64,000 bases of DNA from Candidatus Aenigmatarchaeota archaeon (GCA_016187385.1 JACPJU010000001.1:337144-401143); one strand, 5' to 3'. Positions 2,743 to 28,836 are shown, counted from the first letter of the stretch. Program-made: numbers and translations. The notes: generated by a model from the letters alone, not told the origin.

Positions 2743-2767
2743 ATCTTTTTCTCTCAAGTGGTATACT

Positions 2768-10482: not shown

Positions 10483-10495
10483 GTTTAAGGATTGA

Positions 10496-10741: not shown

Positions 10742-10764
10742 AGATTAATACCGATAAAAAATCT

Positions 10765-12024: not shown

Positions 12025-12220
12025 TGATATTCTCTGTTTTAGAATTACTGATAATGTCTATCTCTGAGGAATTAACGGCGTGCCATCACTTTTTTGGCCA
12101 TCTTCCACGCGATAGATTTAAATATGTGCTACATAATACATATTAGCGAGTAAGTCCTCCCGAAAGGATGATGGCACCTTGAGGTGTATGGGAGCGAGTA
12201 GGGAAGGGTTCGCATTATTC

Positions 12221-12841
12221 TTATTTAAACAATTCTTTGATTGTTTTGATTTTAGGTTCGATAATTGCATAATATCTATCGTCATTTCTCTCATATTTAT
12301 TGAAAATTGCGCCTGCAATAAAATCAACGGCTTGTAGGCATCTTTCAGACACCGAATCTTTATGTTCAACTTCTATCTTTACAGTTTTCTTGATAAACTC
12401 GCTTAATTTTCCTTTGATATACTGGTTGTAATCTTCTCTGCTTTCCTTTGAAAGAAACTTGTCCAAAATGACTACTAATTGTCGCTCTTCCGGAGATGTT
12501 ACTATTTTATCCATTAAGAATCCAGTGATGTAATTGTAAATTTTGTTTCTATGATCCTTTAGGTAGTCATACACGCGGTGTTTTTTCAATATTATTCCGT
12601 GAATTTCTATGTCCTTTGAACTGATGCACCCCAAGAGATACTTTCTGACGGCATCATCTGATTTGTTGAACTTCAGTTCCGGCACGTCCCTGAGTTTTCT
12701 TTTCAATTTAGTATTTCTCGTACGTTTGACACAGTTTTCTATTTGCTTTTCGTTTTTCGCTATGAGTAAGCCTATAACAAAGTATTTGGAACTCTTTTGT
12801 GTAAACCCAAGATCCCCAGATTCATCTAAAAATATCCTCAT
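12221..12841 (-). CDS. DUF3800 domain protein
   Basis: The N-terminus MRIFLDESGDLG matches the DUF3800 start signature. It lies in a defence-like neighbourhood. Confidence 0.65.
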   Translation of the reverse strand: MRIFLDESGDLGFTQKSSKYFVIGLLIAKNEKQIENCVKRTRNTKLKRKLRDVPELKFNKSDDAVRKYLLGCISSKDIEIHGIILKKHRVYDYLKDHRNKIYNYITGFLMDKIVTSPEERQLVVILDKFLSKESREDYNQYIKGKLSEFIKKTVKIEVEHKDSVSERCLQAVDFIAGAIFNKYERNDDRYYAIIEPKIKTIKELFK

Positions 12842-13107: not shown

Positions 13108-15750
13108 TTGATGCATCTTACGAAAGAAGAAGCCAAACTTAAAATCAGAGACCTTGTTCAGAATTATTACAATAACAAGGACAAATTGAGTAAAGACAGT
13201 GAAACCGATACAAGAGTAAAATTTATTGACAGGATGTTTGAAGCTTTGGGATGGGATGTTTTTGGTAGCACTGTATCAGACGAGGTTTTACGTGAAGTAG
13301 GAATACAAGAGAAAGAAGGCAGAAAGAAAAAGGCCGACTACACCTTCAAGATAAACGGCATATCAAGATTCGTAGTAGAAGCAAAGAGCATGGGTGAAAG
13401 TGTTTTCGATCCAGTGTTCATTGTTCAGGCTATTAATTATGCATACAACAAGGCATGCTCTTGGGCCGTGTTGACTAACTTTCACAAACTTGCGATTTAT
13501 TATATTGACAGAAATGTGAACACACCATTTTACAAAATCGATTTTGGCGATATGTCAGCCTTTGATCAGAATTTCGAAATACTATGGTATCTCTCGAAAG
13601 AAAATGTAATTAATAATCTCCTCGAAACAGAAGCGAAAAGAAGAGGACTGAAGAGCGACAAAGTTCCGATAGACAAACAACTTCTGAATGACTTAAAGAT
13701 ATGGAGAGGGCTTTTGTCAAATGACATCAGAAAAAGGTACAAAGATTATGAATCCTACGTGATTGACGAGATAGTCCAGAGGATAATTGATAGGTTAATT
13801 TTCATCAGAAAAACTGAAGACGGGAAGCTGGAAGAACCAAAGCTCGACCAGATAATCAGAAGGCACAATGACAACACCTACGGTGAGATAAAGAAACTTT
13901 TTGCCGAATATAGGGATAAATACGACAGCAAATTATTCGAAGAAGATAGAAAAACACTTCATGAATCCGATAAGATTGAGATATCAAATGATGCCATTGA
14001 AAGTGTGGTTCGTGGCATGTATAGAACAAGAAATATTGACATAGAATACGATTTCTCTGCAATAGATTCGGATATACTTGGAAATATCTACGAACAGTAT
14101 CTCGCTTACGTGCTTTCGCAGACCGAGAAAAAAGTTAAATTGAAAGGCGGTATTTCACATAGGAAGGAACAAGGGATATATTACACACCGACTTACATTG
14201 TAGACTACATCGTGAAAAATACTTTGGGTGAAACCCTTAAGAAAATGAAATTGAAGGATGTAAATAAATTAAGAGTGTTGGATCCGGCATGCGGTTCCGG
14301 TAGTTTCCTAATCAAAGCTTTCGATGTTTTGAACGATTATTATGCAAGAAGTGATGAGAACTATCAGCAGACGAAATTGGATTTGTCTAATGGAACAACA
14401 TTCAGCAAAAAGGTGGATATTATAACAAATAATATTTTCGGTGTTGATTTAGACCCAAAGGCGGTTGAAATCTCACAACTGAACTTATTGTTGAAGATTG
14501 CTGAAAGAGGACAGCGATTGCCAGTATTACAGAAGAATATCAAATGTGGCAACAGTTTAATTGATGATGAATCATTGGCTGGAGACAGAGCATTCAAATG
14601 GGGCATAGAGTTTTCGGATATAACCAAGAATGGTGGATTCGATGTTATTATAGGTAATCCACCTTACGGAGCTGAGCTTAGCGAAGAAGAACAAAATTAT
14701 TTAGATAAATTCTATGACATAGGGTCCACGGATACATCTATTCTTTTCATTAAAAGATCGTTCGAACTTTTAAGAGAAAATGGTAAATTAGCATTTATCG
14801 TTCCGAAAGCGTTATGCTTTGCATCTAATTATGAGGACATTAGAAATTTTATTTGGAATAATTTAGAAACAATAGTAGATTGTGGTAAGGTATGGAAAGA
14901 AGTAAAGTTAGAACAAGTCATATTCATACTTTCTAAAGGTAAAAAATTAGAACAGTATAATTCTTGCCGATTAAGAAATAGTAAAATAGAATATATTGGT
15001 AAAATCAACAAAAGTGATTCAAAACAGTTTGAATTTTTCTTGAATGGTGTTTCATCAAATGATGTAGAATTAGCTAAGAAAATCAAGTCAAAATCTATTA
15101 TGCTCAATGATATCTCAACTAATCAAAGGGGTGCTATGTTACAAAAATTTGTTTCTAAAAAAGGAAGTTTAGAAGTTATCGGCGGTGCACAAATACAAAG
15201 ATTCGGGGTTGTTGGAGTAAAAGGAAAGATAGAACCATCACGCATAGATTCCGAGCAAGCTTATGTAAAAAGCAATTCATTGTTGGTACAGAATATAGTA
15301 GCCCATATAGAAAATCCTACAGACCATATTAAAATAATAGCGTACATTCCTCAAAAGAATTATGTAATTTTAGATACTATCAATCAATTATCTATAAATA
15401 AGGAATACTCACAGAAACTTATTTGGTGCTTCCTAAATTCCAAGCTAATAAATTGGTATGCGTATAGATTTATTTTCGGCAAGGCAATAAGGACGATGCA
15501 TTTTGATAATTCGGTTACATCTCGTTTACCTATTCCTAAAGAAACCAACAGAAAAGTATTGGACGAAATTATCAGCCTATCCAACAAAATACTTTTGTTA
15601 AGCAAACGTTTGAATGAAATTAATACAAAAACAGACGAAATCCAAAAATTGGAAGAGAGCATATGCAAAATACAAAAGAATATAGATTACAAAATTTACG
15701 AACTTTATGGCTTGACTAAAGAAGAAATTGAAATTGTAGAAAACTCTTAA
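13108..15750 (+). CDS. Type IIG restriction-modification enzyme (MmeI-like: N-terminal PD-(D/E)xK endonuclease + gamma-class N6-adenine methyltransferase + TRD)
   Basis: 880 aa. An N-terminal Mrr/HsdR_N-like nuclease (D...VVEAKS) is followed by MTase motifs GIYYTPTYIVDYI, VLDPACGSGSFL (motif I) and VIIGNPPYG (motif IV, NPPY), then a C-terminal target-recognition region. Confidence 0.8.
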   Translation: MMHLTKEEAKLKIRDLVQNYYNNKDKLSKDSETDTRVKFIDRMFEALGWDVFGSTVSDEVLREVGIQEKEGRKKKADYTFKINGISRFVVEAKSMGESVFDPVFIVQAINYAYNKACSWAVLTNFHKLAIYYIDRNVNTPFYKIDFGDMSAFDQNFEILWYLSKENVINNLLETEAKRRGLKSDKVPIDKQLLNDLKIWRGLLSNDIRKRYKDYESYVIDEIVQRIIDRLIFIRKTEDGKLEEPKLDQIIRRHNDNTYGEIKKLFAEYRDKYDSKLFEEDRKTLHESDKIEISNDAIESVVRGMYRTRNIDIEYDFSAIDSDILGNIYEQYLAYVLSQTEKKVKLKGGISHRKEQGIYYTPTYIVDYIVKNTLGETLKKMKLKDVNKLRVLDPACGSGSFLIKAFDVLNDYYARSDENYQQTKLDLSNGTTFSKKVDIITNNIFGVDLDPKAVEISQLNLLLKIAERGQRLPVLQKNIKCGNSLIDDESLAGDRAFKWGIEFSDITKNGGFDVIIGNPPYGAELSEEEQNYLDKFYDIGSTDTSILFIKRSFELLRENGKLAFIVPKALCFASNYEDIRNFIWNNLETIVDCGKVWKEVKLEQVIFILSKGKKLEQYNSCRLRNSKIEYIGKINKSDSKQFEFFLNGVSSNDVELAKKIKSKSIMLNDISTNQRGAMLQKFVSKKGSLEVIGGAQIQRFGVVGVKGKIEPSRIDSEQAYVKSNSLLVQNIVAHIENPTDHIKIIAYIPQKNYVILDTINQLSINKEYSQKLIWCFLNSKLINWYAYRFIFGKAIRTMHFDNSVTSRLPIPKETNRKVLDEIISLSNKILLLSKRLNEINTKTDEIQKLEESICKIQKNIDYKIYELYGLTKEEIEIVENS

Positions 15751-18544: not shown

Positions 18545-18853
18545 ATGGCAATCTTAAAAGTCAACATTTCCAGCGAACTGGAGAAAAGGTTCAGGGAGAC
18601 TGCTATGAAAAAATACGGTTATGTCAGAGGTGCATTGAGTTTAGCCGCGCAAAAAGCGTTAGAACATTGGACATATGAAGAATTCAGCAGGGAAAAGGCC
18701 AAAGAAATTGCTAAAAAACACACCAAGGATCCTGTAGATGAGATAGAGGGTTTATTATCACACGTAAAAGGCAAGACTTCAGTGGAATTACAGCATGAGG
18801 CTGGTAGGTACAGAACAGAAATGGCATTAAGCTATTTGAAAAAAAGAAAATAG
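18545..18853 (+). CDS. VapB-like antitoxin
   Basis: 102 aa, immediately upstream of and abutting a PIN gene. It is homologous to the 19910..20155 product (ELEKRFRETAMKKYGYVRGALS vs VEERFRKLAGATYGRHKGYLG). Confidence 0.55.
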   Translation: MAILKVNISSELEKRFRETAMKKYGYVRGALSLAAQKALEHWTYEEFSREKAKEIAKKHTKDPVDEIEGLLSHVKGKTSVELQHEAGRYRTEMALSYLKKRK

Positions 18854-19282
18854 GTGACAATCTTGTACTTTATAGATACAAACATTTTTCTAGAAGTGGA
18901 ATTAAAACAAAAAAGAGTCGAAGAAAGCAAAGAATTTCTAAGGAAGGTATTAACCGGGGATATAAAAGCTTTTACAAGCGATTTTAATTTGGACTCTGTA
19001 GCTATTGTCATGAATGCAAAGAAATGCAGGCCTCAAGACATAATTAATTTTTTGTTAAAAATAATGAGTTACGAAGGTTTAACCATTTACTCATTAAATA
19101 TGCTTGATAGATTAGTGGCTGCCAAATATATGCGAGATTACAAGTTAACATTTGACGATGCAGTGACTTATTTCGTTACAAAAAGTCTTGGTATTAATGA
19201 ACTGGTATCTTTCGATTCGAAAGATTTCAAAGGACTGCCAGGAATAAAAACACTGGATCCTATCGATGTTTTGAAGAGGTGA
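18854..19282 (+). CDS. vapC: PIN-domain ribonuclease toxin (VapC)
   Basis: 142 aa with the N-terminal YFIDTNIFLE PIN signature and conserved acidic residues. Confidence 0.75.
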   Translation: MTILYFIDTNIFLEVELKQKRVEESKEFLRKVLTGDIKAFTSDFNLDSVAIVMNAKKCRPQDIINFLLKIMSYEGLTIYSLNMLDRLVAAKYMRDYKLTFDDAVTYFVTKSLGINELVSFDSKDFKGLPGIKTLDPIDVLKR

Positions 19283-19286
19283 GTGA

Positions 19287-19418
19287 ATGAAAAGAAGATT
19301 AACAAAAGAAGAGGTTAGAAAGGAAATCGAGAAGGTAGAAAGAATAGCGAAGATGGTCGGCAAGAAAATGCCTAAAGGAAAGACTTCAGTAGATGTAATC
19401 AGAGAGCAGAGAAGATAG
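19287..19418 (+). CDS. Small basic protein (43 aa)
   Basis: Not in the ORF track. The strong SD GAGGTGA sits 4 nt upstream of the ATG, which overlaps the vapC stop. Translation is MKRRLTKEEVRKEIEKVERIAKMVGKKMPKGKTSVDVIREQRR. Confidence 0.3.
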   Translation: MKRRLTKEEVRKEIEKVERIAKMVGKKMPKGKTSVDVIREQRR

Positions 19419-19479
19419 AAAGTGAGAGTTCAGGAACGACTATCATTCATTTTCTTCATCTTTATTATTTCCCGGTTTT

Positions 19480-19920
19480 TTAGAATTTTTCTTTAAAAGG
19501 ATTCACAACTTTTATTCCAGGAATTTTCTTAAAGTCCTTCTCATTCTCTGTGTATATAGTTTCTATGCCATTTTCTTTCATAGTTTCGGCTATCAAAGAA
19601 TCCCAAAATTCAGTTTTGTTTACTTTTGAAGTAGACATTGCAGACTTTACTGTACCTTCCGTATAGTTTATTCTGATCCAGTTAGAAGATTCTACAAATT
19701 TATCAACCAGGCTTTCAGCAACTTCTTTCGAAAGAGGTATTTTCATTTTAGTAGTAAGCACAGAAAATAATTCAGCCAAAACTTGGTTAGATATAACACC
19801 TTTAGATTCACCACTAAAAACATTTTCAACTAGTGATTTGCATATGTTTCCCTTTTCTGTTTCAGATTCGTCGTAAGCATAGACAAGAATTGTGGTGTCG
19901 TAGAATAGTTCATCGTTCAT
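19480..19920 (-). CDS. vapC: PIN-domain ribonuclease toxin (VapC)
   Basis: 146 aa with the N-terminal YDTTILVYAYD PIN signature. Confidence 0.75.
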   Translation of the reverse strand: MNDELFYDTTILVYAYDESETEKGNICKSLVENVFSGESKGVISNQVLAELFSVLTTKMKIPLSKEVAESLVDKFVESSNWIRINYTEGTVKSAMSTSKVNKTEFWDSLIAETMKENGIETIYTENEKDFKKIPGIKVVNPFKEKF

Positions 19921-20155
19921 GCCATTCGCTTCTGTTCTTAGTTAACAATTTCCCCATTTTGAATCCTTTTCTCAACATTTCCAAAGCCCTCGCATTTACA
20001 TCAGTCGTTTTTTTCTTTTTCTCCCATTCTATCATGGCTTCTGTCACAGCTTTGCCCAAGTATCCCTTGTGTCTGCCGTAAGTCGCGCCAGCCAGTTTCC
20101 TGAATCTTTCTTCTACATCTTCTTGAACGCTTATCGTGATGACTTTGGTTTTCAT
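19910..20155 (-). CDS. VapB-like antitoxin
   Basis: 81 aa. Its stop overlaps the downstream PIN gene start, and it is a homologue of the 18545 antitoxin. Confidence 0.55.
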   Translation of the reverse strand: MKTKVITISVQEDVEERFRKLAGATYGRHKGYLGKAVTEAMIEWEKKKKTTDVNARALEMLRKGFKMGKLLTKNRSEWHER

Positions 20156-20230
20156 AATATCTATTTACATCTTCGAGTATTTAAATATATCATTATCTAT
20201 TTAGATTTGTCACACGTGTGACACGAAACA

Positions 20231-20260
20231 GAAAGCGAGAGTTAGAAAGAGATTTAAAAT
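20231..20260 (+). promoter_or_regulatory. Conserved promoter cassette copy 1 (GCGAGAGTTAGAAAGAGATTTAAAA; BRE/TATA 'AGATTTAAA')
   Basis: The TATA-like TTTAAA at 20253-20258 lies exactly 23 nt upstream of the ATG at 20281. The same arrangement recurs at three more genes. Confidence 0.55.
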
Positions 20261-20280
20261 CAACTAGCATACTATTTAAA

Positions 20281-20964
20281 ATGGCCGAATACATACGAGG
20301 AAACTGGAAAACTAATGAAGTTACGATAGATGGCAAACGATTACCACTACAAGAAAGTCTGATGTTTGTAAATATCAGTCCTGCAGGATTTAGTTGGGGT
20401 TATGGTGGAGCCGGTCCAAGCCAATTAGCTTTTGCAATACTCGCCAGATACACAAGTCATGAATTGGCTGGGGCGTATTATAGTGATTTTAAAAATGATG
20501 TAATAGCTAAACTCCCAAAATCAGATTTTGAATTACCAGTAGATGAAGTTAGAAGATGGTTAGATAGTAGAACAGATGAACAGAGAATAAATGCGAATAG
20601 ACGTGCCAAAAATCTGTCTTATGGAATTTCACTTATGCCCAACGATTTGGACGGGCTTTATCATTATGATGCTCATTGGAACGAAAGAGGTGCACTTGTA
20701 TTCTTAGATGTGCCGATTGTGGTAGATGCAGAAAGAAGTGATGAAAGAATAATAATTACTGCGGATGCAGAGTTGAGAACTTATTTAGGTAGACTAAAGG
20801 GGACTGGGGCAAGATTACCGATGCCTAAAAGAAGGAAAGGGCTTCGGGATTTCATTTCTTTTCCTGTAAACCCTAGAAATCTCAGACCGTTGCGGCCTGA
20901 AGAATCTTATTCAGAAGATCCGCATGCAGAATATGTCTGTATGGATAAAGAAGATGAAGTTTAG
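20281..20964 (+). CDS. Hypothetical protein
   Basis: The track ORF 20218..20964 contains the promoter cassette. The start is re-assigned to the ATG at 20281 (MAEYIRGNWK...), which is 23 nt after the TATA, implying a leaderless mRNA. Confidence 0.5.
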   Translation: MAEYIRGNWKTNEVTIDGKRLPLQESLMFVNISPAGFSWGYGGAGPSQLAFAILARYTSHELAGAYYSDFKNDVIAKLPKSDFELPVDEVRRWLDSRTDEQRINANRRAKNLSYGISLMPNDLDGLYHYDAHWNERGALVFLDVPIVVDAERSDERIIITADAELRTYLGRLKGTGARLPMPKRRKGLRDFISFPVNPRNLRPLRPEESYSEDPHAEYVCMDKEDEV

Positions 20965-20978
20965 AAAGAGATTTAAAG
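20961..20978 (+). promoter_or_regulatory. Conserved promoter cassette copy 2 (TTAGAAAGAGATTTAAAG)
   Basis: TTTAAA at 20972-20977 lies 23 nt upstream of the ATG at 21000. Confidence 0.55.
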
Positions 20979-20999
20979 ATTATCGTCTTCTAATGGATT

Positions 21000-21203
21000 A
21001 TGCTCAATTGGCTTTATAGACTTTATGGAGATTTTGGCCGGTTTTCCCCCTACAAAATATTGCGAAATCCTCGTTATGCATACATTTACAACCGAGGCTT
21101 TCGAGATAGGCACGTACCTTACAAACAAGACGGCATCGGGAGTAACTATTTGCCCTCTTACCAATACAAAAAACAGACAATGGATAACTATACGCAGAAA
21201 TAA
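21000..21203 (+). CDS. Small hypothetical protein (67 aa)
   Basis: Supported by its own copy of the conserved promoter plus the conserved TAATGRATTATG start context. Confidence 0.4.
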   Translation: MLNWLYRLYGDFGRFSPYKILRNPRYAYIYNRGFRDRHVPYKQDGIGSNYLPSYQYKKQTMDNYTQK

Positions 21204-21214
21204 CCCAAACGAAA

Positions 21215-21233
21215 TTTAGAAGAGATTTAAAGG
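21215..21233 (+). promoter_or_regulatory. Conserved promoter cassette copy 3 (TTTAGAAGAGATTTAAAGG)
   Basis: TTTAAA at 21226-21231 lies 23 nt upstream of the ATG at 21254. Confidence 0.55.
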
Positions 21234-21253
21234 TTACTTTCCTTTAATGAATT

Positions 21254-21865
21254 ATGATGTCTAATGGACGAGACCGCGGACAATCAATTGACGAAATAAT
21301 GGAAAGAATGAGAGAGGATATGTACTCCGTAGTTGACAAATACGTGGAAGAATTAAGAGAAAGAGCGTTATCCTCATTACCGACTACAACGGATGTCCGT
21401 GAAAAGAGATTAAAAGAATTAAAAGTGAAGACGCCCGAAAGTCCCTCTGAAAAAAGTCAAAAAGTCTTAGACATAGTCGAAAGATATAATATTGGGGATA
21501 GATTTACTACTAGTGAATTTAGCGACAAGTTTTTCGCTCAGTACGGTTCCATCTCTGGCTTATTACCAGTTCTTTCTTCCCATAAAAATGAATTTGGACT
21601 CGAGTACGATTCACAAACAAAGTTATGGACAAAAGTCAGAAAATATCAAAAACCTAAAATGATGAGTGAAGACCTAGATTCGGACCGTAAAGTCCTTTTC
21701 GCTATTTCAGAGTATCCTGTGGGAGCTGTCTTTAGCGTCGATGAATTATCAGAAGCTACTGGATATGGAACGAAAAGTATCAGAGCTTATTTAAGGCGAC
21801 CGAAGGAAAGAATGGAAATTTTAGGAATTAAAGAAGAAGGAGACAGATACGCAAAAGTCAATTAA
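21254..21865 (+). CDS. Hypothetical protein
   Basis: 203-aa ORF with the conserved promoter upstream. Confidence 0.5.
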   Translation: MMSNGRDRGQSIDEIMERMREDMYSVVDKYVEELRERALSSLPTTTDVREKRLKELKVKTPESPSEKSQKVLDIVERYNIGDRFTTSEFSDKFFAQYGSISGLLPVLSSHKNEFGLEYDSQTKLWTKVRKYQKPKMMSEDLDSDRKVLFAISEYPVGAVFSVDELSEATGYGTKSIRAYLRRPKERMEILGIKEEGDRYAKVN

Positions 21866-21929
21866 AGGTTTTTGTAGTGACGAAACATGTGGGCTTGGAA
21901 AGCTTATGATTTCTTGTTTCAATTTAATT

Positions 21930-21963
21930 TTAGAAAGTGAGAGTTTTTGGAATAGATTTAAAG
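21930..21963 (+). promoter_or_regulatory. Conserved promoter cassette copy 4, long form (TTAGAAAGTGAGAGTTTTTGGAATAGATTTAAAG)
   Basis: TTTAAA at 21957-21962 lies 23 nt upstream of the ATG at 21985. It also carries the GAAAGTGAGAGTT box, which recurs at 19417 and in the 22.9-23.3 kb array. Confidence 0.55.
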
Positions 21964-21984
21964 ATTAACGGTTAGTTAAGATTT

Positions 21985-22485
21985 ATGTCTGATAAATTCT
22001 ATGTACCTTACAGGAGTGTCGATGGACAACTGCAGCCATCACAAATAACAACTGATATTTCTTTGGTGGAAGAACTTCTTCAATCAGGACAAACAGACGG
22101 CTACATTATTGGATATCAAGTACCAAAAAAGGTGACCAATATTTTCAATGCATCCATATATGATCTCCCATGGGCTGAAGTAAATCCTAAACACCCACAC
22201 CAGACCTATCGTGCAGCCCACGCTTTCACGCGATTTTTACGTAATCTAAAGTCTCCAGATAGAATCACTACGAATATGATGAGGAACGGTCGCAAGCATG
22301 GTGTAACAGTCGGAGAAGTATGGGAATTATTTACTTATCATGCGGGAGGAGATGAAGAATTAAACATACGAAATTATAATAAAGGTAGTCTTGAGATGAC
22401 ATACAATGCCTTTCGCCAGGCGGGTTTGGAGTTACCCGAAGTTAAGCTTGCAAAAGGTGAAATTAAATGGCGACAATATACATAA
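21985..22485 (+). CDS. Hypothetical protein
   Basis: 166-aa ORF with the conserved promoter upstream. Confidence 0.5.
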   Translation: MSDKFYVPYRSVDGQLQPSQITTDISLVEELLQSGQTDGYIIGYQVPKKVTNIFNASIYDLPWAEVNPKHPHQTYRAAHAFTRFLRNLKSPDRITTNMMRNGRKHGVTVGEVWELFTYHAGGDEELNIRNYNKGSLEMTYNAFRQAGLELPEVKLAKGEIKWRQYT

Positions 22486-22870
22486 AAACAACCTAAAACA
22501 CTTTGATATAATAGTATTTATCTCCGATGTTGTGCTGGGGAATATATGTTGGAGTGGATTATTGCCTTGTAAGCAGATCTATGGCGTTTATTATCGCAAG
22601 TGCAGAAGCAGGTACCGTTACTAAACTGCTGTAAAATTGCCATTCTTGGTATCTGATCAGTTTTATGAACTCTCGAGGCGAAGTAATGGGATTTTCGCGA
22701 TTCCTTCTTTCAAACGTATAAGCTCCAATAACAGGTACGTAATCTATCAAGTAATAATCCGCCATAAGTAATATTAACCGTTAAAATATTTAAATTACAT
22801 ATTAATCATATTCTTCATTATATATGTCCGTGAGTATAAATAACCTCAATTTCATATTATCTATCACTTT

Positions 22871-23295
22871 CGAAAGTGAGATTTTACGCTTTTAATACCT
22901 GAAATATACCTTATTTAGCCCTTTTAATACAAGAACGAAACATGTGATATATTATATATGTAAGAGTGATTTGATTTTTACCAAAAGTGAGGAATTTCTA
23001 TTATATACTACAAAATATAATTCATGAAATAACTGTTGGTGAGTCTTAATAGCAGAGTGAGAGTTAATATGATAAACAAGAAATATGGTTTATATAATAT
23101 AGAATAAAAAGAAAGTGAGCATTAATATATTTAAGAGTACTTATGAGATACGTATCTCATCAGCAATCAGAAATTTATCTCTATAACAGAAGAGTGAGAG
23201 TTAAACAGAAGATTCGCAAAAAATAGAATAGTGAGAAATCAGCTTCTAGAAATATTGTGAGTATTGATCGAAAAGTTTATTTGTGAGAAATACCA
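22871..23295. repeat. Iteron-like array: about 8 imperfect direct repeats of (A)GTGAG(A)(GTTAA) in an AT-rich non-coding stretch
   Basis: Copies lie near 22878, 22986, 23058 (AGAGTGAGAGTTAAT), 23116, 23195 (AGAGTGAGAGTTAAA), 23231, 23258 and 23283, irregularly spaced at roughly 25-110 bp. No ORF is present. Confidence 0.5.
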
Positions 23296-23304: not shown

Positions 23305-23985
23305 ATGGTTTTAGACTGGTTCAAGCGCTTGATTAAAAAACAAACAAGCGGACAAGCGCTTGATTCAATCAATCAAACAAACAAACAAGCGGACAAACAA
23401 ACAAACACGCAAACATCGGAATACTCGTCACTTGAGTTTGACAAGGAATCTGTCCAATTAGGGCTGGCTGCCGGGTATACAGGTCGTTCAATCCACGACA
23501 TAAACACCACTCTAAACCGAATAGAAACCTTAATGCCATCTAAAGACTGGCTACTTATTCAATTCGAAGAACATTTCCATCGCCATGAAGAAAACGAGCA
23601 GAGGCGTCTTGAAATCGTCTTAAAAGCCTTAAATTCGCTCCATTTGCTTTCTTCTCAAGCACCTGAGCCTTTAAAGACTAAAATGTTAGACCAGATTAAA
23701 GTCGTAGAAACAAATCTTGAATTATCTAGAAGAATGACCGAATTAGTCCAGCTCGTGAAATACTCAGGTGAGGCCACCTACAAGGATCTTGCTGCCAAGA
23801 TGGGTATAACACCATCTGCTTTCAGAAGTATGTTATCTCTAGCGATGCAAAGAACAAACGAACTTGAGAAAATAATTAGAGGTAATAAGAAATATCTTAA
23901 ATACAGGAATTCAAGCACCGCTTCAAGCGTTCAAACGGACACTAACAACGAACAAAATCAATCAAACGAACAAGCAAGCACCTAA
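23305..23985 (+). CDS. Hypothetical protein with Q/N/T-rich low-complexity ends and a C-terminal wHTH-like segment
   Basis: 226 aa with KQADKQTNTQT repeats and a segment (YKDLAAKMGITPSAFRSMLSLAMQRTNELEKI) resembling a DNA-binding HTH. It lies immediately downstream of the iteron-like array. Confidence 0.45.
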   Translation: MVLDWFKRLIKKQTSGQALDSINQTNKQADKQTNTQTSEYSSLEFDKESVQLGLAAGYTGRSIHDINTTLNRIETLMPSKDWLLIQFEEHFHRHEENEQRRLEIVLKALNSLHLLSSQAPEPLKTKMLDQIKVVETNLELSRRMTELVQLVKYSGEATYKDLAAKMGITPSAFRSMLSLAMQRTNELEKIIRGNKKYLKYRNSSTASSVQTDTNNEQNQSNEQAST

Positions 23986-24041
23986 AATACCCAAAAAGTA
24001 TACCTATATCCCAGAGAAAGAAAAGAAGAACGAAGCGGAAC

Positions 24042-24170
24042 TTAGTTGCTCCACTTCAATCTGCAATGAGGGCAAACCTCAATTTTTTCGAAAACGCCAG
24101 CTCTAACGAACGTATGGCATTTTCTACAAGGTACGTTGACCTTGCCAATGAACGGACTAAACTTTGACAT
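24042..24170 (-). CDS. Small 4-Cys zinc-ribbon protein (42 aa)
   Basis: Not in the track. Translation is MSKFSPFIGKVNVPCRKCHTFVRAGVFEKIEVCPHCRLKWSN. The SD-like GGGGTGA sits 4 nt upstream of the ATG. Confidence 0.35.
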   Translation of the reverse strand: MSKFSPFIGKVNVPCRKCHTFVRAGVFEKIEVCPHCRLKWSN

Positions 24171-24281
24171 ATTTCACCCCTTGGAGGATTACCGATCGAT
24201 AACCGAAGTATATTATATAGCTTTGCTAGTATATAAACATTTACAATTTTGGAGATAATTTCTAAACCAATCATGACTTTA

Positions 24282-24590
24282 TTATCTGGAGCTTCTAACG
24301 GATTCAATCTTTCTCTTTATTTCCATGTATCTCAAGATGCTGTTCACGTTAACGCCCGGCTTTATTCGCACCATTTTTATTTTCAGGAACGGTTCGACGC
24401 CTTCCTGTTCTATAATCGATTCTCTCAGATACTTGTCGATAAGTCTGGAAACGGTCTTATGGTTCAAATTGCATCTCCTGCCGATTTCTCTATACCATAA
24501 CCAGCTAGTTCTCGACTCTTCGAGGCATTTAACGACTCTGATTACGTTTTCCAGCTCGTCCTTGCGTATTTTATCTCCCGTTTTGGCCAT
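24282..24590 (-). CDS. Winged-helix transcriptional regulator
   Basis: 102 aa with a wHTH (WYREIGRRCNLNHKTVSRLIDKYLRESIIEQEG). Confidence 0.5.
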   Translation of the reverse strand: MAKTGDKIRKDELENVIRVVKCLEESRTSWLWYREIGRRCNLNHKTVSRLIDKYLRESIIEQEGVEPFLKIKMVRIKPGVNVNSILRYMEIKRKIESVRSSR

Positions 24591-24708
24591 ATATCTTTCA
24601 CCCGCGAATTCTCACGTCCCAGTTGGAGCATTTCTCACTCCTAATTGGTAAGATTGACACATAAACCTTAAAACCTGTATAAATTTTTAGTTACTTATTA
24701 TAATCGTT

Positions 24709-25329
24709 ATGACAAAGCTAGAAAAGAACGAGACAACACGATTCTACAGCAATCTGATGGAGATAGCTAGAAAGCCAAATACACAACAACGGTATAATTT
24801 GCTTGTTCAACTCCATCAGGAGACTCTTGATTTCTACGTTCCTACTATTCGTGCAATTACATCAAAAGCAGCATATACGCCAAGCAGTGATGGCAGACCA
24901 CTTTCGCTTGTCGTTGCTCATATAATGGGTTGGGAAGAATGGCAAATACAAGTGTTCAGCGATTCAAACAGAGAAGAACGATTACGAAAACAAATGAAAC
25001 TTCAAGGATATTATGACACTGATACAGAACAAATGACAGATTTCAAAAATGTAGATGATTTCAATGCTTATAATGCCCGCAGATACGGCAATCAATCATG
25101 GAATAAACTCCAGCAACAAGCAATCGATACGGCATTACATCTTCAGTCATTTTTTCCTCCAATCCCATATCATGACTGGATCGACTTCTTGGAGAATACG
25201 CCTATGCATAATTGGAGAATATTACCAAACAATGTTCTTGCTGTTCCTTATGGTTGGTATTTGTGGATGGTTTCTCTTGAGCATGAAGCAGTGGAACACA
25301 GAAAAGATTTAGAACAAACTAAACCCTAG
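24709..25329 (+). CDS. Possible ClbS/DfsB-like (DUF1706) four-helix-bundle protein
   Basis: 206 aa. LSLVVAHIMGWEEW resembles the AHLxxWxE motif of ClbS/DfsB. Weak assignment. Confidence 0.3.
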   Translation: MTKLEKNETTRFYSNLMEIARKPNTQQRYNLLVQLHQETLDFYVPTIRAITSKAAYTPSSDGRPLSLVVAHIMGWEEWQIQVFSDSNREERLRKQMKLQGYYDTDTEQMTDFKNVDDFNAYNARRYGNQSWNKLQQQAIDTALHLQSFFPPIPYHDWIDFLENTPMHNWRILPNNVLAVPYGWYLWMVSLEHEAVEHRKDLEQTKP

Positions 25330-25365
25330 AATAATCAAACTGTCTTAACAGATAAATGCATAATC

Positions 25366-25860
25366 TTAAAATTTGTATTCTTCCAGCTTGTAAACTTTTG
25401 AAACAACGACCTCTTTCCAGTCGCCTATGATGCTTCCAAATTTCTGTCTCAGTTCCATCTTCATCTCGTCCATCTCATAAGTGTCCTTGGCCAGAAACAC
25501 GACATACAGATCATAATCGCCTATCATGCCCATCAGATCTATAACCCTCGGATTTCTCATCAAGTCTTCAATAAGCGCGTTGTACTTTTCTCTGGTCATG
25601 TCCTTGAGTTTCACGTATATGTGGACGCCCAGCGGCAGTCCCATCTTGTCCACGTCAACCTGTATCGTATACCTGGATACAACTTTATCATTCTCCAATC
25701 TCTGCAGCCTCTTCTTTGTGGAATCCACTGAAAGACCTATCTCTTTGGCTAGACCGGTCAGTTTAATTCTCGCATTTTTAACCATGATATTTATGATTTT
25801 GCGGTCAATGTCGTCCGGCTCTCTTAATTTATAGTGTCTTTTACCTATTTTTGCTTCCAT
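25366..25860 (-). CDS. Lrp/AsnC family transcriptional regulator
   Basis: 164 aa with an N-terminal HTH (DDIDRKIINIMVKNARIKLTGLAKEIGLSVDSTKKRLQRLE) and a C-terminal RAM domain. Confidence 0.8.
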   Translation of the reverse strand: MEAKIGKRHYKLREPDDIDRKIINIMVKNARIKLTGLAKEIGLSVDSTKKRLQRLENDKVVSRYTIQVDVDKMGLPLGVHIYVKLKDMTREKYNALIEDLMRNPRVIDLMGMIGDYDLYVVFLAKDTYEMDEMKMELRQKFGSIIGDWKEVVVSKVYKLEEYKF

Positions 25861-26200
25861 TACTCTTAATTAATAAGATAAAAATTTAAATCTATCGTAT
25901 TTTTAAGCCATTTTCTGTTAAAACTATTAGTACTTCTATGACTACTAGATAGTAACAAGTGATGCAAATGAAAAAAGAATGCGATGTGTGCAGAACATAC
26001 ATCTTTGATGAGCAGCTTAGAAATCCAGCCCCAAGTGCAGCAAAAGGACATGCGTATACTGCAACAGGATGTGCGACATTTGTCTGAAGATGTTTTGTTT
26101 CGAAGACGTCCAAGTCAGGAAAGCCGCTATGCCAATGGGCGGCATTCAACTGATGAAACTCTGTGAGTTCTGCAAGGACCAGTTCAAGACGTGATGAAAA

Positions 26201-26662
26201 ATGGCTTTAGACGATGCGACAGATTTTTATCAAGCAGTCAGATCCTATTTCATGGAAGGTGGAACACATTCGAGTCAAATGGTAAGATACCAATTTTTTA
26301 CGAAACTGTTTTTAGACAGGCTTCCACAATTGCGAGCAAGTGAGGCGTACTATAATATTCATATATCATATCCATGGGGAAAACCACGAGAGTCAAGAAG
26401 GAAAATGAGAGACATAACACCAGAAGAACTGAGGGCTGTTTATTCAGTCGGTGCTGATAGATTCAATAAATCGGCTTCAATTGTTGGTACAAACGTGTCT
26501 AAAGGATTTCAGGTTCCAGTAACTCTTGACGATGCACTCTATGTATTATGCGATGCAATCCCAGAGGCATTCAGAAGAGTTCATGGTGACACCCCAATGG
26601 ATAGATATCAAGGCTCCATTAAAGCTGATTATGGCGGATTTGAAACAGGAAAAAGACGTTAA
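26201..26662 (+). CDS. Hypothetical protein
   Basis: 153-aa ORF. Confidence 0.35.
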   Translation: MALDDATDFYQAVRSYFMEGGTHSSQMVRYQFFTKLFLDRLPQLRASEAYYNIHISYPWGKPRESRRKMRDITPEELRAVYSVGADRFNKSASIVGTNVSKGFQVPVTLDDALYVLCDAIPEAFRRVHGDTPMDRYQGSIKADYGGFETGKRR

Positions 26663-26669
26663 CATTTAG

Positions 26670-27080
26670 ATGATTGCTATGTACGAGACTAAACCGTATC
26701 AATTTGGCGAAGAGAAGGCAGATGAGTTTAGAAAGCGGATATCGGCAGGACGCATACAATATTACGATGATATTAGCGTGTTAGGAGACGGTACAATCTT
26801 AGGCCATTCAGGTACAGGTGTATATATTTTGGGTGAAGATGGTCATCCGGTTTCAGCACGATTTTATGAAATCGCTCCGACGAGAAAGGGTTACATGGCC
26901 CGAATAGGTGGAACCAAGGTTTATCTTGATGGATATGGTACAATAAGAAGAGTTGAATTATCAGAAGGATTAAAGAGACTATGGTCAGAATCTCGTCAGA
27001 TGGAGGAAATGCATCGGTTTCTTCACGGAAAAAGTCTCAGAAGTTCCGCCAAGTATATATGGAAAAAATATCAAGTCTAG
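26670..27080 (+). CDS. Hypothetical protein
   Basis: 136-aa ORF, co-oriented and adjacent to the previous gene. Confidence 0.35.
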   Translation: MIAMYETKPYQFGEEKADEFRKRISAGRIQYYDDISVLGDGTILGHSGTGVYILGEDGHPVSARFYEIAPTRKGYMARIGGTKVYLDGYGTIRRVELSEGLKRLWSESRQMEEMHRFLHGKSLRSSAKYIWKKYQV

Positions 27081-27171
27081 TAAAGTCAGCGTGGAAGAAA
27101 ATGGTGGAAGGAAAGAACAAGGGTCATATGCAGATCATGAAACTGTGTAATAATTGCAATGATGCCAAGAT

Positions 27172-27912
27172 GTGGGTACAATGAACGATGTTGTTCTTTG
27201 GAAACCGCTTTACTACACAAGCATTGCGATGTTCGTTCTTTCTTTGGTTCTTTTTCCTTTCAGTTCGCAGTGGTCGATAATAGTCATTTTGGCTCTGGTT
27301 ACATTATGGAGCAGAATTCCAGGATTCGTTCATTTTATTTTCAACAAGTTGGCGTTGAATGATCTTTTTACTTTGATTATTGCCGTCCATGCCGGTCCAT
27401 TGGTTGGTGGTTTATTTGGCGTATTTGGGATAATGTTTGCGAGAATATTCGGACCAAACGAATGGCTGCCTTACAGCATAAGAGCAAGTGTCGCTGTATT
27501 TGTTGCCGGTATCAGCGTGCCTTTGATTACAAGTTTTACAGGAGGACTTGATGTGACAGCCTTGTATGCGTTTGAAGGCGTTCTTTACTTCACATATTAT
27601 GCACTTGTTTTGTTATTTTGGAAAGAAGAGATAGGACTGGAGATAGCGCTTTTGCCAGCTGTCATATTTTTTGACTTTTTCATGAACGCATTTCTGATAA
27701 GCGTTTTCGGCGAAACACTCTCCAACATGATGACTATTGGATTGAGTTCAGGATGGCCATTCTTGATATTCAGCGGAGTGATTCTGGCTTATGTCATGCT
27801 GGCGAGAAACGGGAAAAGGATTGCCGGTCTCTTGGAAAGATTGTGGAGCAAATTCGGAAGCGGTGAAAAGAAAGAACGGGATGAAAATTTGGCATATAGA
27901 ATTGGAATATAG
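27172..27912 (+). CDS. Polytopic membrane protein, hypothetical
   Basis: 246 aa with at least 6 predicted TM helices. Confidence 0.45.
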   Translation: MGTMNDVVLWKPLYYTSIAMFVLSLVLFPFSSQWSIIVILALVTLWSRIPGFVHFIFNKLALNDLFTLIIAVHAGPLVGGLFGVFGIMFARIFGPNEWLPYSIRASVAVFVAGISVPLITSFTGGLDVTALYAFEGVLYFTYYALVLLFWKEEIGLEIALLPAVIFFDFFMNAFLISVFGETLSNMMTIGLSSGWPFLIFSGVILAYVMLARNGKRIAGLLERLWSKFGSGEKKERDENLAYRIGI

Positions 27913-27920
27913 ATTTATCA

Positions 27921-28046
27921 TTATCTGCTTCTCTTGCGTTTCTTCCTGCAATCCTTGCACAGCCACAGGTAACCGGTCTTGAATAGTTTACCGACAGTTT
28001 TGACATTGCCCTTGCAACCATCACAGTTAATGTGAATAATACCCAC
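27921..28046 (-). CDS. Possible small zinc-ribbon protein (41 aa, GTG start)
   Basis: Translation is (M)GIIHINCDGCKGNVKTVGKLFKTGYLWLCKDCRKKRKRSR. It overlaps the 3' end of the LAGLIDADG gene. Low confidence. Confidence 0.2.
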   Translation of the reverse strand: MGIIHINCDGCKGNVKTVGKLFKTGYLWLCKDCRKKRKRSR

Positions 28047-28836
28047 CCTCTATAAATTTCATGAGTTCCAAAAGTCTGTCCTGTTTCCTTTTTATCGAAA
28101 ACCCTAAATTAACAAAGAAGTTTGTCAGACTTTCTGCTTTAATATACAAATTATAGTATGTACCATTCGGATTGAATGAAGACCCCCCAACTTTATATTT
28201 ATTAGCTTTAATTCCAAACTCTTCCAAAAGTCGTTTACACACATCTATTAATTGTTCATTTTTGTTAATAATCTTTATTTGATGACCATTGCAATTTTTA
28301 CGTTTTGTTATAGTACCTTCACTATCAAAAATACCCATCAGAAAACCACGCTTCATATCTTTACTCATTTTAAGTGCTTCTGTTGTGGGAAAATTTTTAA
28401 GGAATATATGCAAACTTTTTGAGTGAACAGTTGCGTTATAAAATCCTCTTTTGTCAAAAAAAGTTGTGCAATGACCACCTATTAAATTAATATGTTTTTC
28501 AAAAAATTCTACAAAATCTTTATCTTTAGCCTTTAATCTTACATAAAAATGTTCTGCACCATTTCTTTCTTTCCAAGAAGATAGATTTCCATCACCAAAA
28601 ACAACCCCAATAGTATAACCTAGCGAAAACGAAGGTTCCAGATTAATAAATTTCAAATCTTTAAAGGGTTTTTTAATTTTCAATCTAACAGCTTTAGTTC
28701 TTATGCCGCTTAATGTTCTTTGAGAAAATAAATCCTTCAAATCTCCAAAGCGATAAGATGGATATGCTTGTTTTAATCTCATTATTTCATTTGTGGTCCA
28801 TCTAGAAATTTTATCTTTCACAAATACTAATTTCAA
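28027..28836 (-). CDS. Free-standing LAGLIDADG homing endonuclease (double-motif)
   Basis: 269 aa with two LAGLIDADG motifs: IGVVFGDGNL and LMGIFDSEGTI. Confidence 0.75.
   Translation of the reverse strand: MKLVFVKDKISRWTTNEIMRLKQAYPSYRFGDLKDLFSQRTLSGIRTKAVRLKIKKPFKDLKFINLEPSFSLGYTIGVVFGDGNLSSWKERNGAEHFYVRLKAKDKDFVEFFEKHINLIGGHCTTFFDKRGFYNATVHSKSLHIFLKNFPTTEALKMSKDMKRGFLMGIFDSEGTITKRKNCNGHQIKIINKNEQLIDVCKRLLEEFGIKANKYKVGGSSFNPNGTYYNLYIKAESLTNFFVNLGFSIKRKQDRLLELMKFIEGGYYSH

Follow-up and report, generated by a model that had tools for sequence, protein, structure and literature searches.

The 64-kb stretch of DNA analysed here (the window) derives from a Candidatus Aenigmarchaeota MAG and is 100% identical to three contigs of the same genome (L001-L003). 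It contains a cluster of tightly packed, co-oriented genes preceded by similar promoter-like cassettes, and this cluster sits in a variable, low-GC cargo stretch of toxin-antitoxin pairs, DUF6166 and genes without relatives. The cluster and its immediate surroundings comprise the following features.

19480-20155, minus strand: VapB-like/PIN operon, diverging from gene 1
20208-20221, no strand: perfect palindrome GTCACACGTGTGAC, able to form a hairpin, between gene 1 and the diverging VapB-like/PIN operon
20242-20259, plus strand: predicted promoter 1, BRE/TATA (TTAGAAAGAGATTTAAAA), with TTTAAA at 20253-20258, 23 nt before the ATG
20281-20964, plus strand: gene 1, 227 aa (public annotation), DUF6166 (Pfam)
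20961-20978, plus strand: predicted promoter 2, BRE/TATA (TTAGAAAGAGATTTAAAG), overlapping the TAG stop of gene 1 (20962-20964)
21000-21219, plus strand: gene 2 region, where two frames overlap: 21000-21203 (67 aa) and 21025-21219 (64 aa, HYW24_02325)
21215-21232, plus strand: predicted promoter 3, BRE/TATA (TTTAGAAGAGATTTAAAG), repeat family D1
21254-21865, plus strand: gene 3, 203 aa, no family match and no detectable relatives
21869-21873, plus strand: T5 run, likely common terminator of promoters 1-3, 3 nt past the gene 3 stop
21946-21963, plus strand: predicted promoter 4, BRE/TATA (TTTGGAATAGATTTAAAG), matched by both the 18-mer and AGATTTAAAR
21985-22485, plus strand: gene 4, 166 aa, no detectable relatives
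22559-22765, minus strand: small convergent gene, 68 aa, HYW24_02340, with TTTAAA 24 nt before its own ATG

The pattern AGATTTAAAR-N21-ATG has four matches in the 64-kb window (20250, 20969, 21223 and 21954) against 0.00 expected. As the earlier note had claimed, the TTTAAA boxes at 20253-20258, 20972-20977, 21226-21231 and 21957-21962 each place their last A exactly 23 nt before an ATG (20281, 21000, 21254 and 21985, respectively). In each of the four copies, the TATA box, ATTTAAAG/A, spans positions -29 to -22 counted from the ATG and follows a purine-rich BRE (AGAAAG), the TATA box being preceded by AGAAAGAG, AGAAGAG or GGAATAG. An A stands at both -5 and -6 before TTTAAA in 4/4 cassettes, and 13 of 17 further promoters in the window have one at -5. 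A pyrimidine directly precedes the ATG in three of the four cassettes. Allowing up to three mismatches, the 18-mer TTAGAAAGAGATTTAAAG gives five matches compared with 0.28 expected, i.e., the four copies and a site at 10234; cassettes 3 and 4 match it only with three mismatches or one indel. The site at 10234 and the promoter of 10765 are the only other near-matches to the cassette in the window, and the 18-mer is absent from L007, one of two related archaeal contigs (L007 and L012) used for comparison.

The likeness between the copies extends to AGATTTAAAR, the same spacing and 72-76% identity over 34-43 nt (repeat families D1 and D7); between promoters 2 and 3, identity is 74% over the 43 nt leading to the ATG. 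It is narrower than first described. The GAAAGTGAGAGTT box, initially taken as part of one cassette common to all four genes, precedes promoters 1 and 4 only and is absent from promoters 2 and 3, and the start context TAATGRATTATG, thought to be conserved in all copies, is present at promoters 2 and 3 only. We also considered the cassette as a piece of a longer dispersed repeat, a possibility already raised in the earlier note, and rejected it, as the repeat ends at about 43-60 nt.

The 23-nt spacing is normal for this genome and not peculiar to the four-gene cluster. Across 71 genes in the window, AT-only TATA-like hexamers gave 24 matches at offsets of 22-27 nt before the start and none at 13-21 nt, and about 21 of the 71 start codons have such a hexamer at 22-27 nt, including those of ribosomal protein S10, an AsnC-type regulator gene and rhomboid. 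TTTAAA-N22-ATG recurs at 10765, 33967(-) and 37359(-, ribosomal protein S10), while offsets of 25-26 nt precede four further genes. The TATA-type starts have no Shine-Dalgarno sequence; at the four starts of the cluster, no GGAGG-, GGTGA- or GAGG-type motif was found at -16 to -4. Several operon-internal genes of the RNA polymerase/ribosomal cluster carry GGTGA or AGGTG. To our knowledge, there is hardly any experimental knowledge of the transcription signals that DPANN archaea use, and our literature search found no transcription-start study of these organisms. The rule seen in the window combines a TATA 22-27 nt before the ATG, first genes free of a Shine-Dalgarno sequence and several operon-internal genes with GGTGA-type motifs, and it can help to call start codons more accurately in such MAGs. 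Here it confirms the start of gene 1 and puts gene 2 in question.

In archaeal core promoters, the centre of an AT-rich TATA element of ~8 bp lies some 26-27 nt before the transcription start. From the geometry of the cassettes, the predicted start coincides with the ATG or is only a few nt away from it, which, together with the absent Shine-Dalgarno sequence, supports the earlier proposal that each gene has its own BRE/TATA promoter and is predicted to be leaderless. A start geometry of 0-5 nt fits genes 1, 3 and 4; at gene 2, the frame opened at 21000 looks spurious and the annotated frame begins at 21025. Leaderless mRNAs, defined by a 5′UTR of 0-5 nt, are the dominant type in several archaea; in Haloferax volcanii they make up 72% of mRNAs, in Sulfolobus solfataricus 69% (PMC4983044). 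The cassettes resemble the promoters of both species in the purine-rich BRE directly upstream of an AT-rich TATA, and their leaderless promoters in a TATA centred about 25-26 nt before the start codon, in the missing Shine-Dalgarno sequence and in the use of this arrangement by many genes. They differ from the promoters mapped genome-wide in these species in that four near-identical copies are consecutive, two of them overlapping the stop codon of the gene before.

Only 4 of 17 other leaderless-type promoters in the window use the offset of 23 nt, whereas all four cassettes do, which indicates that the four are related copies. They probably spread by local duplication, being more alike than function needs. 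The TATA core and the 23-nt spacing are perfect in 4/4 copies while the flanks have diverged, which argues for selection on promoter function.

Gene 1 encodes an N-terminal DUF6166 domain (PF19663; residues 12-95) and a C-terminal domain. The former was assigned with 79.9 bits against a Pfam gathering cut-off of 27, covers profile positions 10-92 of 93 and carries the conserved HSPxGFxWGYGGSGPxQLA motif; the latter has one stand-alone homologue (P0006, 63% identity). The DUF6166 family is large, with 5590 representative clusters matching gene 1 at E ≤0.001 in an exhaustive HMMER search, but a literature search found no paper mentioning it and a PDB sequence search no solved structure matching gene 1. 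AlphaFold2 models of gene 1 (3-sequence alignment, pLDDT 46.7) and gene 3 (single sequence, pLDDT 40.2) were too poor for a fold search. Shifting the start of gene 1 from 20218 to 20281, as had been suggested, fits both the DUF6166 alignment and the annotated length of 227 aa; the shift mends the longest ORF only, however, the public annotation being already right. In a word-indexed search of 5.8 billion proteins, genes 3 and 4 matched only themselves, and PHROGs, PADLOC, NCBIfam and PDB sequences gave no usable match for the cluster proteins. An internal wHTH duplication in gene 3, guessed by eye, had no BLASTP or Pfam support. No orthologues of the four genes were found elsewhere, and L007 and L012 lack genes 1-4.

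Of the four consecutive genes first described, the one at 21000 is doubtful. By its codon usage ORF 21000 looks spurious, and the annotation uses 21025-21219. The codon-usage score of ORF 21000 (-0.143 per codon) lies under those of all 360 real-gene chunks of 65 codons and is exceeded by 25% of spurious ORFs, as compared to a score of 0.033 for frame 21025-21219, which corresponds to the 8th percentile of real chunks and is exceeded by 2.6% of spurious ORFs. The annotated frame starts 25 nt beyond the ATG at 21000, and its TAG stop lies inside cassette 3. Judged by its codon usage, the ‘gene’ at 21000 is probably mis-framed, and gene 2 may be a leadered gene or a relic rather than a leaderless gene. 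The gene 2 region was also considered as a structured RNA and rejected, with no stable structure (folding z = +0.71) and no Rfam match.

In the expression model that we propose, TBP/TFB-directed initiation at the ATG or a few nt from it would give rise to leaderless mRNAs. Each gene apparently needs either its own promoter, if leaderless, or a GGTGA-type motif inside an operon, and this need would explain why each of the tightly packed, co-oriented genes carries a promoter. Archaeal transcription is known to terminate at oligo-T runs. The T5 run at 21869 is the sole intergenic oligo-T (at least five T) in the cluster and, as there is none between genes 1, 2 and 3, the transcripts from promoters 1-3 probably share their 3′ end there. 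Only the 5′-proximal ORF of each transcript would then be translated efficiently. Alternatively, activity could be limited to promoter 1, and perhaps promoter 4, so that genes 1-3 form a plain operon and the internal cassettes are inert relics of local duplication. This would be in accordance with the missing terminator between genes 1, 2 and 3, with the overlap of cassette 2 with the gene 1 stop and of cassette 3 with the stop of the annotated gene 2 frame, and with the non-coding appearance of the frame opened by ATG 21000. Yet genes 2 and 3 lack the Shine-Dalgarno sequence that several genes inside operons of this genome have, all four copies retain an intact TATA core and 23-nt spacing despite diverged flanks, and about 17 other genes use the same geometry, which makes an operon with inert internal cassettes highly improbable. 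The four-promoter cluster offers a compact test case for a leaderless, one-gene-one-promoter organisation.

The boxes upstream of promoters 1 and 4 have further copies in the neighbourhood, where two putative regulator genes are located.

19418-19430, plus strand: GAAAGTGAGAGTT box, exact, at a convergent junction where it overlaps the stop codon of the small ORF 19287-19418; without a promoter nearby
20231-20243, plus strand: box upstream of promoter 1 (GAAAGCGAGAGTT, one mismatch), directly abutting the BRE
21933-21945, plus strand: box upstream of promoter 4 (GAAAGTGAGAGTT, exact)
22830-23287, plus strand: array of 10 co-oriented GTGAG boxes with irregular spacing, upstream of the HTH gene
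23305-23985, plus strand: putative HTH gene (226 aa) with weak HTH matches at the C-terminus; follows the array directly in three genomes
24042-24170, minus strand: small zinc-ribbon-like ORF, with an L007 orthologue (60% identity over 38 aa)
24282-24590, minus strand: wHTH-like gene (102 aa) with orthologues in L007 and L012
24611-24638, minus strand: two GTGAGA boxes (CTCAC on the plus strand, at 24611 and 24634), upstream of the wHTH-like gene and co-oriented with it

Both the exact box at 19418-19430 and the GTGAG array agree with the earlier observation of the box near 19417 and throughout 22.9-23.3 kb. Between 22850 and 23300, GTGAG occurs nine times on the plus strand and not once on the minus strand, compared with about 0.25 copies expected by our own estimate from the 35 plus-strand copies in 64 kb. 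The best copies of the array are at 23053-23065 and 23190-23202, an inverted pair is found at 22859-22884, and the last box is flanked by the TATA-like TTTATT on one side and by the ATG of HTH gene 23305 on the other. The flanking HTH and wHTH genes are kept in L007 and L012 and so are co-oriented GTGAG arrays upstream of the HTH orthologue, at 1397-3263 in L007 (12 of 14 plus-strand copies within 1.9 kb before the gene) and at 234-475 in L012 (6 of 7 within 240 nt). L007 carries at 1395-1407 the same AAGTGAGAGTTCA as the 19418 box of the window, likewise at a convergent junction, and GAGTGAGACGAATTC is located upstream of the wHTH orthologue in L012. Orthologues in the relatives were found for the products of 17047, 23305, 24042 and 24282, and a conserved backbone near MetAP is present in both the window and L007. 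When trained on the L007 and L012 boxes alone, a matrix ranks the promoter-4 box first and the promoter-1 box third in the window, with 6 of its 10 top matches within 20.2-23.3 kb; its 15 matches above threshold do not exceed shuffles (mean 11), and the ranking and clustering alone are informative.

Promoters of a putative regulator and of neighbouring genes are hence enriched in the GTGAG motif, which keeps orthologous positions in the relatives, and we regard this box system as the strongest result of our analysis. Conservation of box and array beside orthologous HTH/wHTH genes strengthens the idea, put forward in the earlier note, of a common regulator acting via the GTGAGAGTT box. The AGAAAGTGAGAGTT boxes before promoters 1 and 4 probably belong to this conserved, co-oriented system, whose centre is formed by the array preceding HTH gene 23305 and by wHTH gene 24282. 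Most likely, the boxes are binding sites of the 23305 or the 24282 product, both of which have HTH assignments below Pfam thresholds. The 23305 product is the candidate box-binding autoregulator and the 24282 product a second candidate; a box-binding protein of this kind would regulate its own gene and couple at least genes 1 and 4 to itself. As in a transcription-factor operator set, a short oriented motif is repeated before the regulator's own gene and further copies lie upstream of neighbouring promoters, with motif and putative regulator conserved in three genomes. Unlike in usual operator sets, there are about ten irregular, strictly co-oriented copies over 450 nt, many more than an operator normally has, and a conserved copy is found where two genes converge and no promoter is present. 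The conserved GTGAG array and the two candidate regulator genes represent a concrete and testable putative regulon in an uncultivated lineage.

We interpret the cassettes as ordinary archaeal BRE/TATA promoters in a chromosomal low-GC island. That all four repeats are functional core promoters for leaderless mRNAs, and that the boxes at promoters 1 and 4 belong to a conserved GTGAG system, we consider likely. The earlier note had taken the repeated cassette and its fixed spacing as more typical of a virus or plasmid than of chromosomal genes. Under this hypothesis, about 16.8-25.3 kb would be an integrated or decayed element with the four identical promoters as its expression module, the array as origin or centromere iterons and the HTH protein as Rep or centromere-binding protein. 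Low GC at 14-24 kb (0.32-0.37), a restriction-modification gene, PIN toxins and DUF3800 in the neighbourhood, a high density of putative DNA-binding proteins and relative-less genes in the stretch, and an array of co-oriented direct repeats before an HTH gene would fit such an element. The DUF6166 domain of gene 1 is known from 95 plasmid records, mostly haloarchaeal megaplasmids, where it sits beside ArdC-like, HNH, restriction endonuclease or relaxase genes, and from one 595-kb phage record. Like gene 1, the haloarchaeal copies lie within runs of small hypothetical genes, but the genes that follow them show no similarity to genes 2-4; one plasmid run (DUF6166 - small - ~200 aa - ~180 aa) resembles genes 1-4 in size only and was dismissed. 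DUF6166 is the only link of the cluster to mobile elements. However, no replication, partition ATPase, capsid or integrase gene was found by Pfam in or beside the stretch (10765-35106), the sole tyrosine recombinase (3007-3933) is about 16 kb away, and no flanking direct repeats were found. IMG/VR scans with gene 1, gene 4 and the HTH gene alignment gave no relative, genes 1-4 had no PHROG match, and PADLOC gave no match either. Genes 1 and 3 have codon usage typical of the host genome, and the backbone near MetAP shared with L007 is consistent with vertical inheritance. Repeated cassettes and the 23-nt spacing also occur at housekeeping genes, with the adjacent nrdD-like 31944(-) and 33967(-) sharing a promoter cassette of roughly 65 nt. 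Cumulative GC skew has its maximum here, not its minimum, and flanking genes converge on the region, which, given the usual skew polarity, is unlike an origin. The cluster itself provides no evidence for a virus or plasmid, and we regard an integrated or decayed element as unlikely.

The co-oriented boxes could alternatively be cassette borders of an integron-like or other site-specific recombination platform, with promoters travelling with the cassettes, rather than operators. Boxes do lie at module borders (19418 / PIN pair / 20231 / genes 1-3 / 21933 / gene 4 and 22559(-) / array). In L007, a GTGAG box lies within 19-28 nt after the plus-strand cargo gene 1857-2030 and after two members of a tandem of three Zn-ribbon mini-genes; the third member has a degenerate GTGTG. 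The cargo is wholly different between the genomes while backbone and boxes persist, and its type, toxin-antitoxin pairs and relative-less genes, is typical for chromosomal integrons. As in integron arrays, variable, unrelated small genes are split by a recurring co-oriented short sequence and adjoin conserved genes. Unlike in these arrays, there is no adjacent IntI-type integrase (the nearest tyrosine recombinase is that at 3007-3933), no attC structure, and cassettes own promoters. Neither attC-like imperfect hairpins (ssDNA folding z of -1.9 to +0.6, no better than shuffles) nor a conserved GTTRRRY core after the boxes was found, the box placement is a classic operator position, and the wHTH gene, on the opposite strand, likewise has boxes upstream that point in its own direction. 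We therefore consider recombination borders very unlikely. A related and unlikely proposal is that backbone, GTGAG(AGTT) boxes and differing cargo constitute a previously undescribed DPANN ‘cargo platform’, a functional analogue of an integron without IntI and attC. Its backbone would consist of the putative DNA-binding genes 17047, 23305 and 24282 and the Zn-ribbon gene 24042, and a locus-specific regulator would govern independently promoted cassettes (toxin-antitoxin pairs, DUF6166, relative-less genes and Zn-ribbon mini-genes) as they are gained, lost and expressed. In this proposal, the boxes would serve as cassette boundaries or roadblocks besides being operators.

Some observations count against the box system as read here. 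The box motif is short, promoters 2 and 3 have no box, and the best-conserved copy (19418; L007 1397) is at a convergent junction without a promoter, which a simple operator model leaves unexplained. The palindrome GTCACACGTGTGAC between the VapB-like/PIN operon and gene 1 is probably an operator and lies outside the cassette. By its TATA placement, the small convergent gene at 22559-22765 looks leaderless too.

Comparison of related loci indicates that the short GTGAG-core box upstream of two promoters of the four-gene cluster (genes 1 to 4, starting at 20281, 21000 or 21025, 21254 and 21985) belongs to a conserved, locus-specific cis-element system, which deserves experimental follow-up. The novelty is modest, as the promoter and operator logic is known and the instance is a new one in a poorly studied lineage. 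Two related archaeal contigs were recovered, L007 by a scan with the neighbouring MetAP gene (uncultured archaeon, 61% MetAP identity) and L012 by a scan with the HTH protein. In L007 the products of 17047, 23305 (HTH; motif QLGLAAGYTG(K/R)SI), 24042 (Zn-ribbon), and 24282 (wHTH) have orthologues in preserved order; L012 contains the HTH and wHTH genes. Genes 1-4, the PIN pairs, and 22559(-) are absent from both contigs; in their place L007 has three tandem Zn-ribbon mini-genes and two genes for small membrane proteins at the equivalent position. The array of co-oriented GTGAG copies before the HTH gene is retained in both, where 12 of the 14 + strand copies of L007 fall within 1397-3263 and 6 of the 7 of L012 within 234-475, and the window array holds nine + strand copies and no - strand copy in 450 nt (about 0.25 expected). 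Window 19418 and L007 1395 share an identical AAGTGAGAGTTCA, GTGAG lies between a TATA-like element and the HTH start (GTGAG-N17/18-ATG) in the window and L007, and GTGAGA boxes stand upstream of the wHTH gene, in the orientation of the gene, in the window and L012. When a position weight matrix trained solely on the L007 and L012 boxes was run over the window, the promoter-4 box ranked first and the promoter-1 box third, and six of the ten top hits fell in 20.2-23.3 kb.

These conserved boxes, arrays, and regulator genes and the matrix ranking lend good comparative support to the common DNA-binding regulator proposed in the earlier note. They make the product of 23305 or 24282 the candidate binder of the box rather than the AsnC-type 25366 product, for which the related loci, as far as recovered, have no counterpart. 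The three paralogous L007 mini-genes (2225-2820) encode about 42-47 aa with a CxxC...CE(K/R)xH pattern; GTATATAC-N-ATATATAT-N4-GTGAG comes within 25-28 nt after two of them and a degenerate form with GTGTG after the middle one, and the TATATA and GTGAG composite also occurs at window 22816-22834. A short DNA repeat, different in each species, further lies in the 5' spacer-coding part of every HTH-gene orthologue and returns at, or immediately beyond, the gene's 3' end:

Window, 23321-23400 and 23956-23979: AATCAATCAAACAAACAAACAAGC, twice, 92% identity
L007, about 3340-3360 and 3862-3875: TCACTCACTCA
L012, about 580-640, about 1003-1018, and 1320-1342: palindrome GATTCAATCGATTGAATC, one copy after the stop codon

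The L012 copy beyond the stop codon hints at a feature of the DNA rather than of the protein. Two perfect palindromes centred on CACGTG, likely operators, lie in promoter regions at window 20208-20221 and 43240-43255; GTCACACGTGTGAC sits between the VapB-like/PIN operon and gene 1.

The four-promoter observation of the earlier note is largely correct, with a doubtful start at one of the four genes. The distance from the end of TTTAAA to the ATG is exactly 23 nt at 20281, 21000, 21254, and 21985, and AGATTTAAAR-N21-ATG has four matches on both strands of the 64 kb, all of them these copies (0.00 expected from shuffles); the cassette 18-mer with up to three mismatches has five matches compared with 0.28 expected. 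Of the accompanying elements, the GAAAGTGAGAGTT box precedes promoter 4 (exact) and promoter 1 (one mismatch) but not promoters 2 and 3, and it recurs at 19418 and within 22.86-23.29 kb; TAATGRATTATG is common to copies 2 and 3 but not to copies 1 and 4. The four copies are more alike than generic promoter signals require. AGA stands immediately 5' of TTTAAA in 4/4 copies versus 1/17 other promoters, and the offset from hexamer end to ATG is 23 nt in 4/4 versus 4/17; copy 2 shares 74% identity with copy 3 and 72% with copy 4 over 43 nt, and copies 1 and 2 are 76% identical over 34 nt in their upstream parts. The cassette repeat is short (about 43-60 nt) and does not belong to any longer dispersed element; local duplication of a unit of box, BRE/TATA, 22 nt, and ATG would be its simplest history. 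Box and BRE of promoter 1 read as tandem AGAAAG-initiated units, AGAAAGCGAGAGTT then AGAAAGAGATTT, which suggests that the BRE-proximal part may itself be a decayed box. Cassette-like sequences also occur as TTAGAAAAGGATTTAAAT at 10234-10251, 3' of the stop of 8985-10229 and with no good ORF at the right distance, and as CGAAAGGATTTAAAGATTAA (within 10725-10767), which is 23 nt away from the ATG of the downstream ORF 10765-11196. Codon scores are poor for the ORFs 10286-10483 (+) and 10343-10663 (-).

A scan of 71 likely window genes for AT-only hexamers with at most one mismatch to TTTAAA gave 24 matches at 22-27 nt before the ATG and none at 13-21 nt. About 21 genes follow this spacing rule, including the following outside the cluster:

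Offset 23: S10 (37359), 33967, and 10765
Offset 25-26: AsnC-type regulator gene, rhomboid gene, and restriction-modification gene

No Shine-Dalgarno motif was found before any of the about 21 rule-following genes; GGTGA or AGGTG precedes several genes inside the RNA polymerase/ribosomal operon. A TATA box spanning about -29 to -22 relative to the ATG corresponds to the canonical archaeal distance between TATA and transcription start, and the transcripts are thus predicted to be leaderless. Leaderless mRNAs are the majority class in several archaea, with 72% in Haloferax volcanii and 69% in Sulfolobus solfataricus (PMC4983044). TATA geometry and the lack of Shine-Dalgarno motifs support the promoter and leaderless reading well as a prediction. 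Because the spacing rule is genome-wide, the four genes use the organism's ordinary expression mode, and the spacing is uninformative on viral or plasmid origin. Repeated promoter cassettes on neighbouring genes are not unusual in the window either: as a housekeeping case, the NrdD-like gene 31944-33869 (-) and the next gene 33967-35106 (-) have twin promoters with a common cassette of roughly 65 nt, ATATCA.AAATTATGATA...ATGATA...ATTTTTAAAT.TTAG.ATT (33870-33950 and 35107-35187, - strand).

Cassette 2 contains the stop codon of gene 1, and cassette 3 contains, at the equivalent place, that of the annotated gene 2 frame. Since the sole intergenic oligo-T run in the cluster (T5, 21869-21873) is just 3' of gene 3, promoters 1-3 would be expected to yield nested transcripts with a common 3' end, and on each of them translation would begin mainly at the 5'-terminal AUG, given that no Shine-Dalgarno motif precedes the downstream ORFs. 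The doubtful start is that of gene 2. In a codon-usage log-odds test trained on 39 window genes and compared with 360 real 65-codon chunks and spurious ORFs, the ORF 21000-21203 of the earlier note (N-terminus MLNWLYRLYGDFGR...) scored -0.143 per codon, under all 360 real chunks, with 25% of spurious ORFs higher. The overlapping frame 21025-21219 (MEILAGFPPTK...), used by both the public assembly's gene calls and the NCBI annotation, scored 0.033, the 8th percentile of real chunks, with only 2.6% of spurious ORFs higher. The ORF at 21000 has its ATG 23 nt after TTTAAA but a codon score like that of non-coding sequence, and either promoter 2 gives a 25-nt leader, or it serves an atypical 67-aa protein, or its ATG is a duplication relic. 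About 250 nt of AT-rich DNA (20973-21219) accommodate three overlapping ORFs of 58 aa or more, two in + frames and one in a - frame; the best codon score among them belongs to the - strand ORF 20973-21164. A structured RNA in the gene 2 region was ruled out by folding and Rfam tests.

Two alternatives to operator function, namely that the boxes are cassette boundaries or roadblocks, or that they are iterons or the centromere of a decayed mobile element, stay alive because the best-conserved box stands at a convergent junction without promoter in both the window and L007, boxes in L007 come after each small cargo gene (one with degenerate GTGTG), and the array, unlike a normal operator, is strictly co-oriented with far more numerous copies. 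An integron-like system is at odds with the lack of an adjacent integrase and of attC-like folding of the boxes.

The virus or plasmid module proposed in the earlier note finds an echo in gene 1, whose N-terminal DUF6166 domain belongs to a very large family (5590 representative clusters) that tblastn located on 95 plasmid records and one 595-kb phage record. The plasmids are mainly haloarchaeal megaplasmids, and on them the domain is surrounded by small hypothetical genes, with ArdC-like, HNH, restriction endonuclease or relaxase genes close by. The virus or plasmid inference is not supported: no hallmark genes or att repeats were found, and the IMG/VR scans of three proteins gave no relatives. 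The genes after DUF6166 on those plasmids have no relation to genes 2-4, and protein and family searches detected neither relatives nor family matches for genes 3 and 4. Genes 1 and 3 have host-typical codon usage, which argues against recent import. Structure predictions of the cluster proteins were too poor in quality for use.

The window is chromosomal and contains RNA polymerase subunit and ribosomal protein genes, EF-1alpha, EF-2, S10, 5S rRNA, MetAP, and an NrdD-like gene. A 'Candidatus Aenigmarchaeota archaeon' MAG encodes proteins identical to the products of genes 1-4, the hypothetical HYW24_02320, _02325, _02330, and _02335, on a 786-kb contig that is present in DNA runs SRR12113424, SRR12113430, and SRR12113431. 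The cluster lies inside a low-GC stretch (0.32-0.37 at 14-24 kb versus about 0.38-0.45 in the rest of the window). Features of this stretch are:

13111-15750: type IIG-like restriction-modification gene
18545-19282 and 19480-20155: two PIN toxins with small partner genes
12144-12215 (+): DUF3800-X RNA (Rfam RF02984, 75.8 bits), directly adjoining the DUF3800 gene
12221-12841 (-): DUF3800 protein gene, neighbour of the DUF3800-X RNA

Cumulative GC skew has its maximum at about 24000-28000, and genes converge on this region, mostly + to its left and mostly - to its right; the region may be replication-terminus-like, or the maximum a mere consequence of gene orientation. The EF-2 gene (39090-42038, -) has an apparent intein with LAGLIDADG domain (Pfam Intein_splicing and LAGLIDADG_3, residues 87-285), and a free-standing LAGLIDADG protein is encoded at 28027-28782 (-). 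Two Rfam tRNA matches at 53358-53467 and 55208-55324 (-), unreported by ARAGORN, are 110 and 117 nt long and probably contain introns.
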